DNA from: a virus
UHGV virus genome: UHGV-1480848
Reading direction: 5' to 3' (one strand)
Length of the DNA: 32,007 nucleotides
Part shown: positions 1-7,652 of the stretch, piece after piece
How the letters are laid out: each line of letters begins with the position of its first letter
How positions within the stretch are numbered: the stretch's first letter is position 1
Position numbers and translations under genes: made by a program
The notes under the pieces: model-generated
Database searches by the model: none
The model's input: only the letters and a program-made list of their open reading frames with translations
Told to the model about the DNA's origin: nothing

Positions 1-18
1 ATATAAAGAGGTAAATCA

Positions 19-177
19 TTTGATACTGCTGAAAAATCCGGGAGGAAAGTGGATCAAACGGGATTTGATGGGATAAAACAAACAGTTATGACGTAAAACA
101 GTGTTATGCGCACAACATGTGATTTGATACTACTGTCGCAAAGAAAGCTAAAAACGAAAAAATATTTGATACTACTG
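19..177 (+). repeat. Three direct copies of 13-mer TTTGATACT(G/A)CTG; putative transposase end-binding sites (L1/L2/L3-like)
   Basis: Copies seen at 19-31, 123-135 and 165-177, each followed by an A-rich tract; bases 32-70 resemble the Mu left-end sequence CCGGGAGG...GATGGGAT as I recall it. Confidence 0.6.
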
Positions 178-234
178 ATTTCTGCGATTTTAACGTTTTA
201 AACAGGTTAAAAAACCAGCCGCGGGCTATTGGAA

Positions 235-819
235 TTAGCCCGCCTTCGATTCTAAACTACTTGAGAGTTTATCGCTTTCAATTTCTGCCAAAATCTCTCT
301 AACTCTTTCATCCGATAAATGATCTAAAAGTAGAGCTGCTGCACGTTTTCGTCCTTCAAGTTGGATTAGTTCTTGATTCTCTGGTTCAAGTAACCGTGAC
401 AAGTACTTAGCTCCATTTAGCGCGAGGATTTTTGATAATCGCTCTGCCTCTGATGCTTCTAAAGCACTTAGTATAGCAAGAAGGCGCTGTAGCGTTATAT
501 CTAGGGGCAATTGGACGTTTTCATCTATTTTAGGTGATATTGGTTCTATATCCTCCTTGCCAAAAACAAGCCAATCAATGCTCACCCCTTCTGCAAAAGC
601 AATCTGACCAGCTACTTGTAGAGATGGTGTCGCATCTTTCTCAAAGTAGTTGTTAAGTGTTGAGAACGGTAGCCCCCACGCCTTCGCCACGGCAGTCTTG
701 GAGCGCCCGCGCATTAACATGGCTAGGCGCTCTTTAATGCTTTCTTTTTGAAACACAGGAAAAGAAAAATCACTTTCTTTTTCAGTGCTTCTTTCTTTTC
801 TGTTAACTATATGATTCAT
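235..819 (-). CDS. Prophage repressor (c-like), HTH DNA-binding protein
   Basis: Only leftward gene, divergent from ner as in Mu; HTH-like segment SKTAVAKAWGLPFSTLNNY. Start taken at internal ATG (MNHIV...) because the ORF-track N-terminus is an implausible hydrophobic extension; alternative start 870. Confidence 0.7.
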   Translation of the reverse strand: MNHIVNRKERSTEKESDFSFPVFQKESIKERLAMLMRGRSKTAVAKAWGLPFSTLNNYFEKDATPSLQVAGQIAFAEGVSIDWLVFGKEDIEPISPKIDENVQLPLDITLQRLLAILSALEASEAERLSKILALNGAKYLSRLLEPENQELIQLEGRKRAAALLLDHLSDERVREILAEIESDKLSSSLESKAG

Positions 820-959
820 AAAGAAATATCCTTTTGTAGATAAAAACCACCAAAGAAAGAGATAAAACACCTTTACTTTTCTTTTGTAGTGATCAAATAT
901 TTATATGTAGAGATTATCCGGCGGTGTTATCCGCGCAGATAACTTTTAAGGATAAACGA
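820..959. promoter_or_regulatory. Divergent operator/promoter region between repressor and ner
   Basis: AT-rich 140 bp with direct repeat CTTTTGTAG at 831-839 and 881-889, IHF-like core gATCAAatatTTA at 890-902, and imperfect palindrome GTTATC-N6-GATAAC at 926-943. Confidence 0.55.
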
Positions 960-1196
960 ATGATGTCTATAAATGAAGTTGTTAAACAGGACTGGCACCC
1001 CGCGCATGTTGTCGCGGCGGTGCATGTAAAAGGTTTTACTTTACGCTCTCTGTCCATTGAAGCCGGTTTAAACCAGGATTCTTTAAAGAATGCCCTGTAC
1101 CGCAAATGCCCAAAATATGAGCGCATTATTGCTGATGCTATTGGTGTTGCTCCGGAGGAGATCTGGCCCAGCCGTTACGCTCGTAAGGTGGTATAA
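960..1196 (+). CDS. ner: Ner-like DNA-binding protein (negative regulator of early transcription)
   Basis: Translation carries Ner/Nlp-family motifs (DWH..V.A, IIA.A.G..PE.IWPSRY); ATG at 960 preceded by AAGGA; ORF-track start 924 is GTG without a good RBS. Confidence 0.85.
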   Translation: MMSINEVVKQDWHPAHVVAAVHVKGFTLRSLSIEAGLNQDSLKNALYRKCPKYERIIADAIGVAPEEIWPSRYARKVV

Positions 1197-1198
1197 AA

Positions 1199-3286
1199 AT
1201 GTTTGTATCAGTTAATGAGCTTGTAGGGCTACCAGGTATGCCGGGAACTGCGCAAGGGGTGCGGTATTCCATAAGGAAACTGGCCTCATCTGAGCATTTC
1301 AGGCGCAAACGTGCGGGTTCAAAAACCATTGAATACAGCATCGACTGCCTCCCTCCGATTACACAACGGGCGTTACGTGAGCGACATGTAGCTCAACTGA
1401 TGGCAAGCGCCCCGCAGGAGATAACTACCCAGCCTCCTGTAAAGCGTGAACGCAAACAAAATGTTGTACAGCCTGTTGAGGCATATCGCGGTTCGCCACA
1501 ATTGGTAGAAGAGCGTCTGAATGCGCTTACGGAAAATCAACGTAAAGTTGCAGAAGCGCGCATTGCTCTTGTCTGTGAAGTTCTACGAATTAGCCAGGAG
1601 CCGGGATTCAGTTGTGCCAGCGCTATACGTTTTATTGTGTCGCGGTTAGCACAGGGTAACCTGGAAGAACGCCTGGAATCTTTGGTCATTACTGCTAATG
1701 CCCGTAAAGGAAAAGAGCGAACTCTGAGCGCAATTACGCTCAAACGTTGGATAGCTGCGTTTAACAAAGCACAGAATGCCGCAGAACGACTGCTGTTACT
1801 GGCACCAGGAAAGCGCGACGAAATAAAACCGGAAGAAATTAGCTGGCTGCCTGAATTTCTGGCGCAGTATCGTCAGGCTAACGGCAGGCCTATGTCTGAA
1901 GCCTATGAGGATTTTGTCGCTGATTGGCAGCGTCGCCATGCGGACGAACCATACATGCTGGAGGTGATGCCTTCCTATGATGTTGTCCGGTATGCCATGA
2001 AAAAACTGCCGGAAGTGGTGAAACAAAAAGGGCGCGTTACCGGCAGTGAATACCGTCAGCTTGAAGGATTCACCCGCCGCGACTGGACAGCTATGCCGGT
2101 GAATTATGTCTGGATTGGTGACGGTCACGGTATGAAGCTGAAATGTGCGCATCCGGTTCACGGGCGTCCATTTTCACCGGAAGTTACGTTTGTGATCGAC
2201 GGTGGAACCCGGTTTGTGGTTGGCTGGAGTCTTGATCTTGCGGAGAACGTGTTCGCTGTTGCCGGGGCGATACAACACGGCATTCGCAATCATGGAAAAC
2301 CATTCCTGTATTACTCGGATAATGGTTCCGGTGAAACGGCAGATATGCTGGATAAAGAGATCGTCGGGATTCTGCCCCGTCTGGGGATTAACCACCCCAC
2401 CGGTATTGCGGGAAATCCGCAGGGACGCGGCATTATTGAACGCCTGAACCGAACATTACCGATGCGTATAGCCAGGAGGTATCGCACCTATTTCGGCAAG
2501 GGTGCTGACCGGGAATCGTTGCGAGTACTTAATCGTGATCTGCGTTCAGCGTTTAATGCCCTGCAACAGGACAAGCCACTGAGCGCCCGTCAGAAAGCCG
2601 CAATGCGCGAGCTGCCGTCCTGGTCAGAACTGATTGAGGCTATCCGTGAGGGGGTGGAGTGGTACAACAACCGCCCACATTCTGAATTGCCGATGAAACC
2701 AAACGGAAAGCATTACAGCCCGGCAGAGTTCAGAAAAAAACGCTTAGCGGAAGAAGACACTGAAATTGAGTGGCTGAGTGATCTTGAGCTGCGCGACATG
2801 TTCCGCCCGATGGTGGAGCGTCCGGTAAGACGCTGCGAAATCCAGTGGCTGAACAATATTTACTACGCGCCAGAGCTGCGTGATGAACATGGTCGCAAAG
2901 TACTTATCAGCTATGACATTCACGATGCCGAGCGAATTACGGTACGCCGTAAGGACGGTAGCTTTATCTGTGAGGCGATATGGAACGGCAATAAACGCGC
3001 AGCCTTTCCTGTCACGGCTGAATATCACAAACAACAGCAGCGTATTAAAGGCATGCGCAAGCGTGCTGAGGAAAAAATTCGTGATGCAGAGGATGAAGGT
3101 ATTCAGATTCTGGAACACAAACAGGCTGAACCCTGGCTGGATAATGTTTATCGCCCGGTTGGTAATACGGTAACCATCCGGCAACAGGATTATGAGGAAG
3201 ATTACGACGAAGATTATGAACGCGATTTCAGGCTGGGTTTGCAAAAACTTGCAGCCATACAGGAACAGGATGATCCGCTGGCCTGA
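1199..3286 (+). CDS. A: DDE transposase, MuA-like
   Basis: 695 aa directly after ner; Mu-transposase-like core (VWIGDGHGMKLK, NHGKPFLYYSDNGS) and acidic C-terminal tail. Confidence 0.93.
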   Translation: MFVSVNELVGLPGMPGTAQGVRYSIRKLASSEHFRRKRAGSKTIEYSIDCLPPITQRALRERHVAQLMASAPQEITTQPPVKRERKQNVVQPVEAYRGSPQLVEERLNALTENQRKVAEARIALVCEVLRISQEPGFSCASAIRFIVSRLAQGNLEERLESLVITANARKGKERTLSAITLKRWIAAFNKAQNAAERLLLLAPGKRDEIKPEEISWLPEFLAQYRQANGRPMSEAYEDFVADWQRRHADEPYMLEVMPSYDVVRYAMKKLPEVVKQKGRVTGSEYRQLEGFTRRDWTAMPVNYVWIGDGHGMKLKCAHPVHGRPFSPEVTFVIDGGTRFVVGWSLDLAENVFAVAGAIQHGIRNHGKPFLYYSDNGSGETADMLDKEIVGILPRLGINHPTGIAGNPQGRGIIERLNRTLPMRIARRYRTYFGKGADRESLRVLNRDLRSAFNALQQDKPLSARQKAAMRELPSWSELIEAIREGVEWYNNRPHSELPMKPNGKHYSPAEFRKKRLAEEDTEIEWLSDLELRDMFRPMVERPVRRCEIQWLNNIYYAPELRDEHGRKVLISYDIHDAERITVRRKDGSFICEAIWNGNKRAAFPVTAEYHKQQQRIKGMRKRAEEKIRDAEDEGIQILEHKQAEPWLDNVYRPVGNTVTIRQQDYEEDYDEDYERDFRLGLQKLAAIQEQDDPLA

Positions 3287-3358
3287 ATAAAAAACAGTCC
3301 GCGGGAACGGACTGTTAAGTAAAGGAAACAAAGCTGATTTGAATAAACGGAGAATAAT

Positions 3359-4291
3359 ATGACCGATATTAATGATGTTTTCAACACAATTAATGCGCTG
3401 ATTACTGACGGTGTAAAAACACAAAGCGCTATCGCCAAAGAAGCTGGCGTGTCGGAGGCCACTCTTTCTGAACTTCGCAAAGGCCGTTACAAAGGCGATA
3501 CCGAAGGGATGCACAACAAATTACTGATGTGGCATCAGGGCTGGCAGAAAAGTCTGGAGTTGCCCGGCACCCCACAACTTGTGGAAACACAGACCCTGCG
3601 TGATTTGCGTGAACTTTTTCAGACAGTGCGTGTTATGGGGTGTATCAGCGTTCTGGTGGGTGTGCCGGGGGTAGGAAAAACCGTTGCGGCCCGTGAATAC
3701 AGTAACCGCGTATCTAATACCTGGATGGTAACCCTTTCCCCTGCACACTCAACGGTGACGGAATGTCTGCTGGAACTGGCAGACGCGCTGGGAATTGATA
3801 ACCCGCAAAGGAATAAAGGCGCGCTGACCCGTGCCATTCGCAAAAAACTGAACGGTACACGCGGTCTGGTGATTGTGGATGAAGCTGACCACCTGAGCAT
3901 TGACGGGCTGGAACAATTACGTGCCATTCAGGATGCCACCGGAGTCGGGATGGTATTGATTGGTAACCCCAGTCAGTTAGCCAAAGCCACACATCGGGGA
4001 ACGGATGACCTTGCACGTTTGTTCAGTCGTTTCGCCAGGACAAAGCAACTACGTAAAGCCAAAAAGGCTGACGTGGTGGCAATTGCGAAAGCCTGGGGCA
4101 TTGAGGGCGAAGATGAATTATCACTCATGCAGAGCATCGCGGAAAAGCCAGGCGCATTGCGTGTATTAACTCACACGCTGAATCAGGCGTGGCTGGCAGC
4201 CAGCGGGAAAGGCGTTCCTCTGTCCAAAGGCTACATAAAAGCGGCTTTTAAAGAGGTTTACAGCAACCCGAAATTACTGAACTGGTGGTAA
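3359..4291 (+). CDS. B: Transposition ATPase / target DNA activator, MuB-like (AAA+)
   Basis: 310 aa; N-terminal HTH; Walker A GVPGVGKT; Walker B LVIVDEADHL; follows A. Confidence 0.93.
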   Translation: MTDINDVFNTINALITDGVKTQSAIAKEAGVSEATLSELRKGRYKGDTEGMHNKLLMWHQGWQKSLELPGTPQLVETQTLRDLRELFQTVRVMGCISVLVGVPGVGKTVAAREYSNRVSNTWMVTLSPAHSTVTECLLELADALGIDNPQRNKGALTRAIRKKLNGTRGLVIVDEADHLSIDGLEQLRAIQDATGVGMVLIGNPSQLAKATHRGTDDLARLFSRFARTKQLRKAKKADVVAIAKAWGIEGEDELSLMQSIAEKPGALRVLTHTLNQAWLAASGKGVPLSKGYIKAAFKEVYSNPKLLNWW

Positions 4292-4305
4292 GGGGATAAT
4301 AAATA

Positions 4306-4533
4306 ATGATGTCACGAAATATAAAAATGGCAACGGATGCGCAGAACTGGTTACAGGCGCGCGGGAGTCATGTAAATGAATCATATCTCGGCGTGGCGCG
4401 TCCGATTCTTGAAATCACTTACCCACCGGTGGAACTGGTAAAAAACGCGGTCAGAATTATGGAGCATAAGTCCGGGGTGGCCCGTTCTGTATGGACGGCC
4501 CGTTTTAATGGTTGCCAGATAATCTGGAGATAG
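4306..4533 (+). CDS. Hypothetical early protein (occupies the position of Mu kil)
   Basis: 75-aa ORF with AAGGGGA RBS 9 nt upstream; no recognisable motif. Confidence 0.45.
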
Positions 4534-4540
4534 CATTTAA

Positions 4541-4753
4541 ATGATGGTGATAAATATTCACGATAATCTGGGAATCAGTAAGTTAATCAACCTTGATAAT
4601 GTCAGTGTAATGGAAACGACTGTTGAGGGCGGTATTGCTTTTGAATTTATTGATGGTCACCGGCTGGTCGTTCATGTCGGCAACCATCATCACGCAGAAG
4701 ATGTGTTTTGGGAACTTAACAAAATCACAAATGCAACACCCGTTAATCAATAA
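4541..4753 (+). CDS. Hypothetical early protein
   Basis: 70-aa ORF, GGAGA upstream; AT-rich early region. Confidence 0.4.
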   Translation: MMVINIHDNLGISKLINLDNVSVMETTVEGGIAFEFIDGHRLVVHVGNHHHAEDVFWELNKITNATPVNQ

Positions 4754-4760
4754 GCAGGTA

Positions 4761-5036
4761 ATGAAAATGGCAAAAGTAATCTTTGAATTTAACAATACAA
4801 GAAATATTGAGTTTCAGGATAATGGAGGTTTTGCCGTAAATATGAATGTGCGACTGGAAGAATCCTCACCTGAGGACCAGACCGGGCCACATGATGTAAT
4901 GGCAGGCATCATCAAGAGCATGGCTCCTGAAATCATTAAAAAAGCGACCGAGGAGTTGTTGAAATCAGCCAGGGAGCTTGGGCTGGAAGCCGAGGGGGAA
5001 TTATTCAGCTATAACCCGAATGCAGCCAGACATTAA
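4761..5036 (+). CDS. Hypothetical early protein
   Basis: Start chosen at ATG 4761 (MKMAKV...) just after the stop of the previous gene; the ORF-track start 4623 would overlap that gene. Confidence 0.45.
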   Translation: MKMAKVIFEFNNTRNIEFQDNGGFAVNMNVRLEESSPEDQTGPHDVMAGIIKSMAPEIIKKATEELLKSARELGLEAEGELFSYNPNAARH

Positions 5037-5056
5037 TTCACAAAGGAACGCTGACA

Positions 5057-5476
5057 ATGAACGTCAAAATCCGAAATGAAATTCAGGCATTAATCCGAAT
5101 TCAGGAACGCAATAACAACGGTGGTGAATTACGCGAGTTTATTTGCGCCCGAAAAGTTGATGATTGTGGTGAAAAGACTTACCTGATTGCTTTCGACCAT
5201 TACAGCATCTGTGCGCGTTATTGCGGCGAAAGCATATCCCGCGCCATTGCATTTGGCGGTGCGTTCAACGTGGATTTATGGGAGTACGTCATGGACCGGG
5301 AATACATCTGCGCATCAGACCCTGAAGCCCGTGAAATGTGGCAGCGTATCTGGCGCGATTACCGGTTAATGGCAAAAGGCTGGGCGCGCTGCTGTTATTC
5401 CTCGCTTGCCCTGAAAGCGGTTCAGTTATCGCTGCGGCATATTCCGGCATCACTGCGCGAGCCTCTGCTGTACTGA
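5057..5476 (+). CDS. Hypothetical early protein, Cys-rich
   Basis: 139 aa; AAGGAA RBS 8 nt upstream; several Cys (CARK..DDCG, CARYCG, ARCCY). Confidence 0.5.
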   Translation: MNVKIRNEIQALIRIQERNNNGGELREFICARKVDDCGEKTYLIAFDHYSICARYCGESISRAIAFGGAFNVDLWEYVMDREYICASDPEAREMWQRIWRDYRLMAKGWARCCYSSLALKAVQLSLRHIPASLREPLLY

Positions 5477-5776
5477 ATGGTGGCTGACATGAAGTGTAAT
5501 CGTAAGCGCTGGTCACGCGAAGACCGGGAATTTATCGAAGCCAACGTCGGGAAAATGACCGTTGAAGAAATGGCGGAAAAACTGAAAGTCGCCACAACCG
5601 CCCTCCGGGCACATGCCAGAAGGCACGGAATATCATTGTGTGTATACCGAATCAGTGAACACGACAAATATTTATGTCGTGAACTTTATAAAGAAGGGCT
5701 GGATATTCATGTCATTGCCCGAAAGATGGAATTAAGCAATCGAGCTGTATCCAGCATTGTATACAGCGGATATTAA
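5477..5776 (+). CDS. Putative DNA-binding protein with two HTH-like segments
   Basis: 99 aa; segments MTVEEMAEKLKVATTALRAHARRHG and LDIHVIARKMELSNRAVSSIVY look like helix-turn-helix units; alternative start 5489. Confidence 0.5.
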   Translation: MVADMKCNRKRWSREDREFIEANVGKMTVEEMAEKLKVATTALRAHARRHGISLCVYRISEHDKYLCRELYKEGLDIHVIARKMELSNRAVSSIVYSGY

Positions 5777-5795
5777 TTAACAGGAGCTTTAATTT

Positions 5796-6320
5796 ATGGC
5801 TAAACCAGCAAAACGCATCAAAAGTGCCGCAGCGGCTTATGTGCCACAAAACCGCGATGCGGTGATTACCGATATTAAACGCATCGGGGATTTACAGCGC
5901 GAAGCATCACGTCTGGAAACGGAAATGAATGATGCCATCGCGGAAATTACGGAGAAATTTGCAGCCCGGATTGCACCGATTAAAACCGATATTGAAACCC
6001 TTTCAAAAGGCGTTCAGGGATGGTGTGAAGCGAACCGCGACGAACTGACGAACGGCGGCAAAGTGAAGACGGCGAATCTTGTCACCGGTGATGTATCGTG
6101 GCGGGTCCGTCCACCATCAGTAAGTATTCGTGGTATGGATGCAGTGATGGAAACGCTGGAGCGTCTTGGCCTGCAACGCTTTATTCGCACGAAGCAGGAA
6201 ATCAACAAGGAGGCGATTTTACTGGAGCCAAAAGCGGTCGCAGGTGTTGCCGGAATTACGGTTAAATCGGGAATTGAAGATTTTTCCATTATTCCGTTTG
6301 AACAGGAAGCCGGTATTTAA
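5796..6320 (+). CDS. gam: Host-nuclease inhibitor Gam (DNA-end-binding, Ku-like)
   Basis: 174 aa; sequence closely matches Mu Gam as I remember it (MAKPAKRIKSAAAAYVPQNRDAVITDIKRIGDLQREA...); CAGGAG RBS. Confidence 0.9.
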   Translation: MAKPAKRIKSAAAAYVPQNRDAVITDIKRIGDLQREASRLETEMNDAIAEITEKFAARIAPIKTDIETLSKGVQGWCEANRDELTNGGKVKTANLVTGDVSWRVRPPSVSIRGMDAVMETLERLGLQRFIRTKQEINKEAILLEPKAVAGVAGITVKSGIEDFSIIPFEQEAGI

Positions 6321-6418: not shown

Positions 6419-6958
6419 ATGGTTGATGCAAAAATTCTGAATGGTGTCAGCACATTATTACGGGCTTACGGACGCCTGACCTGTGGAGTTCTGGCTGAAA
6501 AAATGAATATGCTGCCCTCGTCAATGGTGTATTTCCTGCGTGATGCGGTTGATGCCGGAGTGCTCACCGAATGCAACGGATTTTATGACGTACCGCGTCC
6601 CCGTACAGAGCAGCCTGTAAGACGAAACGCAACTGAGCAGCCTGCTGTTGATGATGCGGTGTGGTGCAACTGGCGTCGCTCATTACCCTGGGTGGAAGGT
6701 AATACCATCCCTGCGCTGGCAAAAGAGTTTGCGACGGGCGTGCTGACCTGTGAGTCAGTCCACATTGTTGCTGAGGTGGATAACAGAATGTGCGAACAGG
6801 GAATGCCCCGTTTTGTGATGGCTTATATCGATATCCGGCTGGGGCGTTTTATTTGCAGTTCAAGCGCCTGGAATATCACCGACCATGTACTGCGTTATCT
6901 CATCATTGATTTTTCATCAGCACCGGGTGTGGTGCAGGAGGCTGGTTGTGAAATTTGA
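6419..6958 (+). CDS. Hypothetical protein with possible N-terminal winged-helix domain
   Basis: 179 aa; AGAGGA RBS; the winged-helix call for the N-terminal ~50 aa is inferred from its amphipathic pattern only. Confidence 0.5.
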   Translation: MVDAKILNGVSTLLRAYGRLTCGVLAEKMNMLPSSMVYFLRDAVDAGVLTECNGFYDVPRPRTEQPVRRNATEQPAVDDAVWCNWRRSLPWVEGNTIPALAKEFATGVLTCESVHIVAEVDNRMCEQGMPRFVMAYIDIRLGRFICSSSAWNITDHVLRYLIIDFSSAPGVVQEAGCEI

Positions 6959-7652
6959 AGACTGGGGTATTGATAAAAGTTGTGGCCGGGACGTCCTGGT
7001 GTACAAAAGCTGTAGCGTGATTGAAGGAGAAGATGCCTGGCAGGTTCTGGATATACTTCGTTCTGCTTTATGCAGAGCTGGCTATGTTACGCCAGCGTCA
7101 GTTAATGGCGGAACTGCCACTACCTGTATCAGAAAGCAACTTTATAGTTTTTATACAGCCTACAACCGATGGTTAAAGAATGGGGCAATGGAGACGGGCG
7201 ATGATGTATTTACCCGGGCTGCCGGATTATGTGCCAATGCTTACGATTATTTTGAATCAACCGGTGCAGACAGTGAAGCCGCATTAGAACAATTACATGC
7301 GGACTTTATCTCAGCAGGGCTGAATGAGAAATTGCCATTTAACCGGGACAGCAAACATTACAGAAACGAAAGCAAATTGGCCAGATGCCACCAGAATTCA
7401 GCACGTGTGGCATGGGTTGAAAAACACTGTATTAGTTCTGATTCAGAAATAACGGGGAAAAAGACAGTCGGTGAAACATCGTATTCGTGGCTGGGGAAAT
7501 TTACCACGGTGAAACAGGAATGCCCGACCTGCGGTAATGAATCCCCTGAATATCTGAAAGAGTGTCCCCATTGTGGCGGGCAGAAATGCAACCACTGTGA
7601 TATGGGCGATGACACGGCGTGCATGAATTGTGAAGGTGAACAGAATGAATAA
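6948..7652 (+). CDS. Hypothetical protein with C-terminal 4x CxxC zinc-ribbon
   Basis: GTG start at 6948 preceded by AGGAGG; C-terminus CPTCG..CPHCG..CNHC..CMNC. ORF-track start 6885 lies inside the upstream gene. Confidence 0.5.
   Translation: MKFEDWGIDKSCGRDVLVYKSCSVIEGEDAWQVLDILRSALCRAGYVTPASVNGGTATTCIRKQLYSFYTAYNRWLKNGAMETGDDVFTRAAGLCANAYDYFESTGADSEAALEQLHADFISAGLNEKLPFNRDSKHYRNESKLARCHQNSARVAWVEKHCISSDSEITGKKTVGETSYSWLGKFTTVKQECPTCGNESPEYLKECPHCGGQKCNHCDMGDDTACMNCEGEQNE

Follow-up and report, generated by a model that had tools for sequence, protein, structure and literature searches.

Our study showed that the five small open reading frames (ORFs) packed tightly on the + strand at 4306-5776 of UHGV virus genome UHGV-1480848, a stretch of 32,007 nucleotides (nt) that we call the window, correspond to the known kil-to-gp9 segment of a Mu/D108-type phage, with a known alternative cassette in the slot of gp6. 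The segment lies between gene B (3359-4291) and gam (5796-6320). We hold it to be very probable that the semi-essential (SE) block of a Mu/D108-type prophage begins with these five genes (kil, a slot-2 cassette, gp7, gp8 and gp9), that they belong to the Pe early transcript, and that they encode dispensable accessory factors directed at the host. All five genes were already known, and the finding is real but ordinary. A first-pass annotation made from the sequence had delimited the same five ORFs between B and gam, and its coordinates are correct, except that the start of the third gene is refined to 4767 and that of the fifth perhaps to 5489. It had also placed the cluster in the semi-essential early region of Mu, which agrees with the annotation of Mu and D108 in the same order and with protein identities of 97-100%. 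Its view that none of the ORFs could be assigned by eye does not make them novel, since four have annotated D108 counterparts (kil, 7, 8 and 9) at 97-100% identity and the fifth is 96% identical to an annotated Escherichia coli prophage protein.

The assignment is carried first by the nucleotide sequence and by gene order. A megablast search of positions 4200-5900 against 50,697 phage records returned D108 with 98.4% nt identity over 82% of the query and Mu with 97.6% over 65%, and the Mu/D108-like DNA starts at 4294, directly after the stop codon of B (4291). The records of Mu and D108 both annotate kil, 6, 7, 8, 9 and gam in identical order. Between B and gam, D108 (NC_013594; EP-D108_gp05, gp07, gp08 and gp09) has the same order, spacing and strand as the window, and its kil, 7, 8 and 9 products are 97%, 98%, 100% and 100% identical to ours. 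Where D108 carries a cysteine-rich gp6 between kil and gene 7, the window carries an unrelated gene, ORF2, the only one of the five that is absent from both Mu and D108. The five-slot layout is also common to Mu (NC_000929; kil and E5-E8, Mup05-Mup09), with Kil, gp8 and gp9 at 97%, 96% and 99% identity. Relative to Mu, slot 2 (gp6/E5) is replaced and slot 3 carries a different allele of gp7. The positions of the five genes and of their two neighbors are given in Table 1.

Table 1. Genes of the kil-to-gp9 segment and the two genes that bound it in the window (aa, amino acids).
Feature	Position	Strand	Remarks
Gene B, AAA+ transposition ATPase, divergent allele	3359..4291	+	Pfam Phage-MuB_C E=5e-24; left boundary of the cluster
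kil (Mu gp5), 75 aa	4306..4533	+	97% aa identity to Kil of Mu and D108
ORF2, 70 aa, alternative cassette in the slot of Mu gp6 (E5)	4541..4753	+	phrog_3375 E=5e-33
gp7, D108-type allele, 89 aa	4767..5036	+	98% identical to D108 gp7
gp8 (E7), 139 aa, 7 Cys	5057..5476	+	100% identical to D108 gp8, 96% to Mu gp8
gp9 (E8), 99 aa (95 aa from ATG 5489)	5477..5776	+	100% identical to D108 gp9, 99% to Mu gp9
gam, host nuclease inhibitor	5796..6320	+	Pfam Phage_Mu_Gam E=4e-42; right boundary of the cluster

Because the ORFs match PHROG families, are syntenic in 42 related viral loci and have ratios of nonsynonymous to synonymous substitution rates (dN/dS) below 1 against divergent alleles from related loci, we conclude from sequence comparison that they are real genes and not chance frames. 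Profile hidden Markov model searches, which the first-pass annotation had proposed, gave a PHROG family for all five ORFs (E from 7e-29 to 4e-97) and helix-turn-helix (HTH) matches for gp9, but no significant Pfam, NCBIfam or PADLOC domain for the first four. Sequence and profile searches of the PDB with Kil, ORF2, the gp7 family and gp8 gave no match below E=0.2. In four of the five genes a Shine-Dalgarno motif is visible ahead of the start codon. Searches of PHROG with the minus-strand and overlapping ORFs in 4381-5667 gave no match, and we discarded these frames as spurious; scans of the region for repeats, promoters or terminators and Rfam families gave no sign of a non-coding element. The description of the stretch as AT-rich is mildly true: its G+C content (GC) is 46%, against 53% for the whole window, with ORF2 lowest (39%) and gp8 at 50%.

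The alignments identify the first ORF as the Kil protein of Mu. The first-pass annotation had suggested a kil analogue; kil was the right name, and at 97% identity the protein is more than an analogue. It matches phrog_2743 over its full length (positions 1-75 of 75, E=4e-43), has an AAGGGG Shine-Dalgarno motif about 10 nt upstream of its start and shows dN/dS of 0.08-0.27. Its ATG (4306) opens the first gene directly downstream of the B stop codon, a layout found also in Mu, D108 and the 42 viral loci; the start used in the annotation of Mu itself is one codon later, at 4309. According to PMC3961180, which cites Waggoner 1989, expression of Mu kil gives spherical, dying cells, read as a block of elongation. 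The Kil proteins of lambda and Rac are likewise small early phage proteins that are lethal on expression, and they share the name of Mu Kil, but they cause filamentation via FtsZ whereas Mu Kil gives spherical cells, and Mu kil has no sequence similarity to either (PMC3961180). Filamentation is therefore probably the wrong read-out to expect for kil, because the Mu gene is reported there to give spheres and not filaments. The product name used in RefSeq and PHROG, "Kil protein for bacterial septation inhibition", conflicts with this phenotype, and we regard the label as doubtful because Mu kil gives spherical cells.

The comparison with related loci indicates how the segment diversifies. Using Gam as an anchor we fetched 127 loci, among which a close Muvirus set of 42 viral loci has Gam of at least 90% identity. 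Every locus of this set (42 of 42) has kil, a gp7-family gene and gp9, and 37 of them have gp8. Slot 2 varies as well, being occupied by gp6 in 25 loci, by ORF2 in 4, and empty in 13. Altogether there are 13 gene combinations among the 42 loci, and the pattern shows, at the level of sequence, that the region evolves through gene-sized cassette exchange at conserved intergenic junctions. The exchange of ORF2 for gp6 illustrates it. In a three-way DNA alignment, identity stops at the kil stop codon (4533) and restarts at the shared AATCAATAAG (4745-4754), in which ORF2 and Mu gp6 both have their stop codon. This alignment identifies ORF2 as an exact gene-sized replacement of gp6. We ruled out that ORF2 is itself a member of the gp6/E5 family: it has no BLAST match to gp6 of Mu or D108, lacks cysteines and thus CxxC pairs, and belongs to phrog_3375, whereas the cysteine-rich Mu gp6 falls in phrog_3786. 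Mu-like phages at a greater distance (Gam 73-80%) keep kil at 41-54% identity and sometimes have a gp7-like or gp9-like gene, but they lack gp8. Some close relatives of Mu in IMG/VR (L031-L034 and L047) also lack gp8; they have a longer gp9 (107 aa) and a kil-to-gam interval of about 850 nt.

Exchange also extends beyond the cluster. The left arm (1-4293) is a module distinct from Mu and D108, and its first part (2-3166, comprising c, ner and most of A) is 98.3% identical in nt to the Yersinia phages vB_YpM_5 and vB_YpM_6. The B protein of the window is only 44% identical to that of Mu, and likewise 44% to that of D108, and is 98% identical to that of two IMG/VR loci (L004 and L009). On the other side, Gam is 100% identical to Gam of Mu and of D108, and the 24 kb to the right of the cluster are about 98% identical to both phages. 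The only kind of record that has all five genes, including ORF2, is a prophage of E. coli elppa5 (NZ_CP083503; WP_135395856/58/60 and neighbors), which is 98.8% identical to the window in one piece over 4294-5900 and annotates all five genes just as hypothetical proteins. The B gene of this prophage is of the Mu type (99% to Mu B), whereas that of the window is of the divergent type. The combination seen in the window (divergent B, ORF2 and a D108-type gp7) is absent from all the loci that we fetched. We nevertheless read the window as one more mosaic of known parts.

The third gene deserves a closer look. Its start is the ATG at 4767 rather than the upstream TTG at 4623: the 137-aa version from the TTG is an artefact, as the 48 aa that it adds lie over ORF2 in another frame and gave no family match, and a match of this long version to RraB (E=0.023) fell below the cut-off of that profile. 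The 89-aa protein matches phrog_2230 over its whole length (positions 1-89 of 89, E=2e-39) and has dN/dS of 0.12-0.50. It is a member of a hypervariable, fast-diverging family of 87-89 aa, whose putative Mu allele (E6/Mup07) is Gnarl2 (NP_050611.1, Mu 4784-5047; Silas et al., Nat Commun 2025, PMC12373910). Expression of Gnarl2 shortens or alters the O-antigen, seen as band shifts, and sensitizes wild E. coli to phage T5; the authors called the sensitization serendipitous (PMC12373910). The slot had been chosen as an accessory gene in a screen built on hypervariable phage regions (PMC12373910); neither accessions nor searched sequence strings of the D108-type gp7 or of ORF2 occur in the supplements of that paper.

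We regard the window gp7 as a plausible but unproven relative of Gnarl2. The two share the slot, a near-equal length (89 and 87 aa), a MAKVI.E start and a C-terminal histidine. Mu gp7 (phrog_10252) cross-matches phrog_2230 at E=0.009 over residues 1-78, and an intermediate allele (L058) matches both types with pairwise E-values of about 1e-8 to 3e-9; the weak profile match that runs through intermediate alleles is collinear. A profile of all non-Mu alleles finds Mu gp7 at E=1e-5 and, among 4051 ORFs, every Mu-type copy at about 3e-6, with the best decoy at 0.67. By BLAST, only the first 11 aa of the window and Mu proteins align. A third common allele of the family, beginning with MAKVIFEFTWLESSD, occurs in ten IMG/VR loci (L004, L006-L010, L014 and L016-L018). 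It is 40-43% identical to the D108 type, from which it differs mainly in the N-terminal half while retaining a GPHD...MAPEIIKKA core, and its dN/dS against the window allele is 0.42-0.50.

The fourth gene, gp8, matches phrog_3690 at E=4e-97 and has dN/dS of about 0.17; the source names attached to its family are limited to E. coli, Salmonella and "Enterobacterales". The first-pass annotation had called this protein cysteine-rich. This is so for the present copy, with 7 Cys in 139 aa, but the only His and Cys residues kept in all of 12 homologues are H48, C52 and C56, while C30, C37, C85, C112 and C113 vary. The protein was accordingly rejected as a zinc-finger or Cys-ligand metal binder, as it lacks four conserved Cys/His ligands and any zinc-finger Pfam match. 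An apparent distant homologue with a reported identity of 45% (P0031) is a frameshifted copy and was dropped from the alignment. Searches of gp8 in Pfam, NCBIfam, PADLOC and the PDB returned no match, and the AlphaFold2 model built with 12 homologues is unusable (predicted local distance difference test, pLDDT, 46.5; predicted template modelling score, pTM, 0.31).

The fifth gene, gp9, is the one for which a fold can be proposed. The stop codon of gp8 and the ATG of gp9 abut (TGAATG), and the true start may be the ATG at 5489 rather than that at 5477, because most homologues have 95 aa; this alternative start, which most of them use, is preceded by GGTGG. The protein matches phrog_323, "transcriptional regulator, D5-like", at E=7e-29, and its dN/dS is mostly about 0.17-0.26, with 0.77 against a single allele (L041). 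Weak HTH matches fall on both halves (Pfam HTH_Tnp_1, Sigma70_r4_2, GerE and HTH_23; NCBIfam Cbp1), and the best match of its profile in the PDB is 2LVS (E=0.009). In the AlphaFold2 model (pLDDT 78.5), helices 14-23/29-36/40-49 and 61-72/77-83/88-97 form two bundles of three helices each, with a linker of about 10 residues between them. The top Foldseek matches in the PDB, none better than E=0.08, are the bipartite HTH domains of Tc3 transposase, YesN, AraC, Cbp2 and IstA, and in BFVD many tandem-HTH phage proteins of about 100 aa match the model with E-values down to 1.7e-5. The tandem HTH protein that the first-pass annotation had proposed at this position is thus supported by the predicted structure and by the profile matches on both halves, and we propose that gp9 is a putative DNA-binding regulator.

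The structural parallels of gp9 concern architecture and not family membership. Tc3 transposase (1U78), the CRISPR-repeat binder Cbp2 (2LVS) and the DNA-binding domain of AraC have, like the gp9 model, two three-helix HTH units and a short linker; the full-length bipartite matches show 15-17% identity and the short ones to a single HTH up to 37%, and the proteins share no common context with gp9. One homologue, from Pluralibacter gergoviae (P0055, 153 aa), carries the first HTH repeat twice, the additional copy being N-terminal, and so has three repeats in all. This third repeat favors a modular repeat origin of gp9.

How might such a block work? In Mu, the SE region is largely uncharacterized and is transcribed within the long Pe early transcript (PMC3325207; PMC3820752), and its deletion from MuBam restored the viability of the host after infection to 100% (PMC3325207). 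By analogy, the five genes of the window would be translated from a long early transcript that runs from Pe, upstream of ner, through A and B into the SE genes. The gaps between the genes are 0-20 nt, no promoter- or terminator-consensus match was found on the + strand between 4000 and 6500, and Rfam had no match in the region. Once the early operon is on, the products would act on the host as dispensable accessory factors. Kil would kill the host and turn rods into spheres, as shown for the 97%-identical Mu protein, pointing to a block of elongation. The gp7 of the window probably acts on envelope or lipopolysaccharide biosynthesis too, by analogy with Gnarl2, possibly with another target or host specificity. 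The most likely activity of gp9, going by its model, is to bind DNA as a bipartite reader and to regulate the transcription of the phage or of the host. For gp8 and ORF2, both small soluble proteins, the likeliest role would be to bind and inhibit a host protein, which is a guess from context. The first-pass annotation rightly stated that most of these genes are without established function (PMC3325207; PMC3820752). It had also considered that all of them might be known Mu accessory proteins of established function: all are indeed known proteins of the Mu group, but only kil has a phenotype for this very protein, that of Gnarl2 belonging to another gp7 allele. The only published phenotypes relevant here are those of Mu kil (PMC3961180) and Mu gp7/Gnarl2 (PMC12373910), and for Mu gp6, gp8 and gp9 our literature searches brought up no assigned function.

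Several observations weigh against the reading of the block as an early operon of host-directed factors, or against parts of it. The operon membership of the window genes is carried over from Mu. The database name of Kil disagrees with its spherical-cell phenotype. For gp8 and ORF2 no fold or domain is recognizable, and the role proposed for them is conjectural. The DNA-binding claim for gp9 depends on a model with pLDDT 78.5 and on fold and profile matches that are individually weak (Foldseek 0.08; PDB sequence 0.009). The link of the window gp7 to Gnarl2 is weak, with a pairwise identity to Mu gp7 of about 21%. Without the N-terminal 10 residues the match of the non-Mu profile to Mu gp7 falls to E=0.03, about half of the score being N-terminal, and hhalign aligns only 14 N-terminal columns of the D108 and Mu types, with a probability of 37%. 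The MAKVI.E motif could be kept for translation initiation or recombination, rather than because the proteins share an ancestor over their whole length.

The same facts can be read with a different selective purpose in mind. The cluster might be chiefly an island of counter-defense or superinfection exclusion, in which ORF2, gp7 and gp8 inhibit host immunity or block other phages rather than aid the replication of Mu. This overlaps with the reading that we prefer, differs from it mainly in that purpose, and is in our view possible though on balance unlikely. It would fit the high turnover of cassettes described above, the raised dN/dS of gp7 and ORF2 (0.4-0.5), the very narrow taxonomic range of the ORF2 and gp8 families, and the origin of the gp7 slot in an accessory-gene screen of hypervariable regions in which the Mu allele changed phage sensitivity (PMC12373910). 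Yet the effect of Gnarl2 on T5 sensitivity was serendipitous according to its authors (PMC12373910), no significant match to PADLOC or to any defense-related profile was obtained, and we found in the literature no anti-defense activity of gp6, gp8, gp9 or ORF2.

A second alternative concerns gp9 alone, which might regulate the development of Mu itself, for example as one of the SE functions cim or arm, by binding Mu operators, ends or enhancer and not host DNA. Its bipartite HTH architecture recalls the DNA-binding domains of transposases, with Tc3 and IstA among the top fold matches, and the gene is present in all 42 close loci and also, at 48% identity, in more distant Mu-like phages. Nevertheless, these fold matches are weak, growth does not depend on the SE region, and we found no publication mapping cim or arm to the gp9 ORF; one paper lists cim, arm and sot as SE functions but assigns none of them to an ORF. 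We therefore think this role rather improbable, somewhat more so than the counter-defense island, and retain gp9 as a putative regulator of phage or host transcription within the accessory block.

ORF2 is an acidic protein free of Cys, in which a cluster of histidines is conserved (HVGNHHHAED in the window, with HVGNHHHAE conserved). Its residues 1-69 align with positions 1-73 of phrog_3375, a family of unassigned function. Only 7 protein clusters were found in 5.8e9 proteins, and all those with a source name come from E. coli; the protein is 96% identical to WP_135395858.1, the hypothetical protein of the Mu-like prophage of E. coli elppa5, and tblastn against the 50,697 phage records returned no match. 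An exhaustive HMMER search of 1.84e9 representatives added only two repeat proteins of 1312-1363 aa from a metagenome library (P0064 and P0065), in which a unit of about 50 aa, weakly resembling ORF2, is repeated 5-7 times (whole-protein E 1e-11 and 7e-4). We treat them as a weak lead and not as homologues, the score being summed over 5-7 near-identical repeats. ORF2 was found with the D108-type allele of gp7 in 6 of 6 cases. The two genes could conceivably form a cassette for envelope remodeling or exclusion, where gp7 would be an O-antigen modifier of the Gnarl type but of a second functional class, its host target unlike that of Mu Gnarl2, and ORF2 a new small inhibitor of a host protein replacing the zinc-ribbon-like gp6; we consider this proposal distinctly unlikely.

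That ORF2, or another of the ORFs, is merely an open frame in recombinant filler DNA is very improbable: ORF2 does have the lowest GC and the highest dN/dS, few homologues, some truncated or frameshifted copies (P0004-P0007) and no domain match, but it matches phrog_3375 along its full length at E=5e-33, its reading frame is preserved in alleles of only 77-79% identity, at dN/dS of 0.44-0.47 against two divergent alleles (the 0.80 against the 96%-identical allele reflects too few differences to judge), GGAG lies 11 nt upstream of its ATG, it fills the slot exactly, and PGAP annotates it as a coding sequence.

Further to the right, downstream of the homologue of gp11 (6419-6958), a 255-aa ORF (6885-7652) has a dense CxxC-rich C-terminal tail (CPTCG...CPHCGGQKCNHC...CMNC). 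Its first part shares DNA with the end of the gp11 homologue, hence its true start is probably later.

Overall, our results re-identify the kil-to-gp9 segment of Mu and D108 in a mosaic relative, which matters little when taken alone. The wider value lies in the kil-to-gam interval as a natural site of cassette exchange, of which one slot has already yielded the O-antigen remodeler Gnarl2. What remains of interest are the functions of gp8, gp9, ORF2 and the divergent allele of gp7. The allelic series of gp7 and the alternation of gp6 with ORF2 provide natural variants for asking which host targets are hit first by Mu-type phages.

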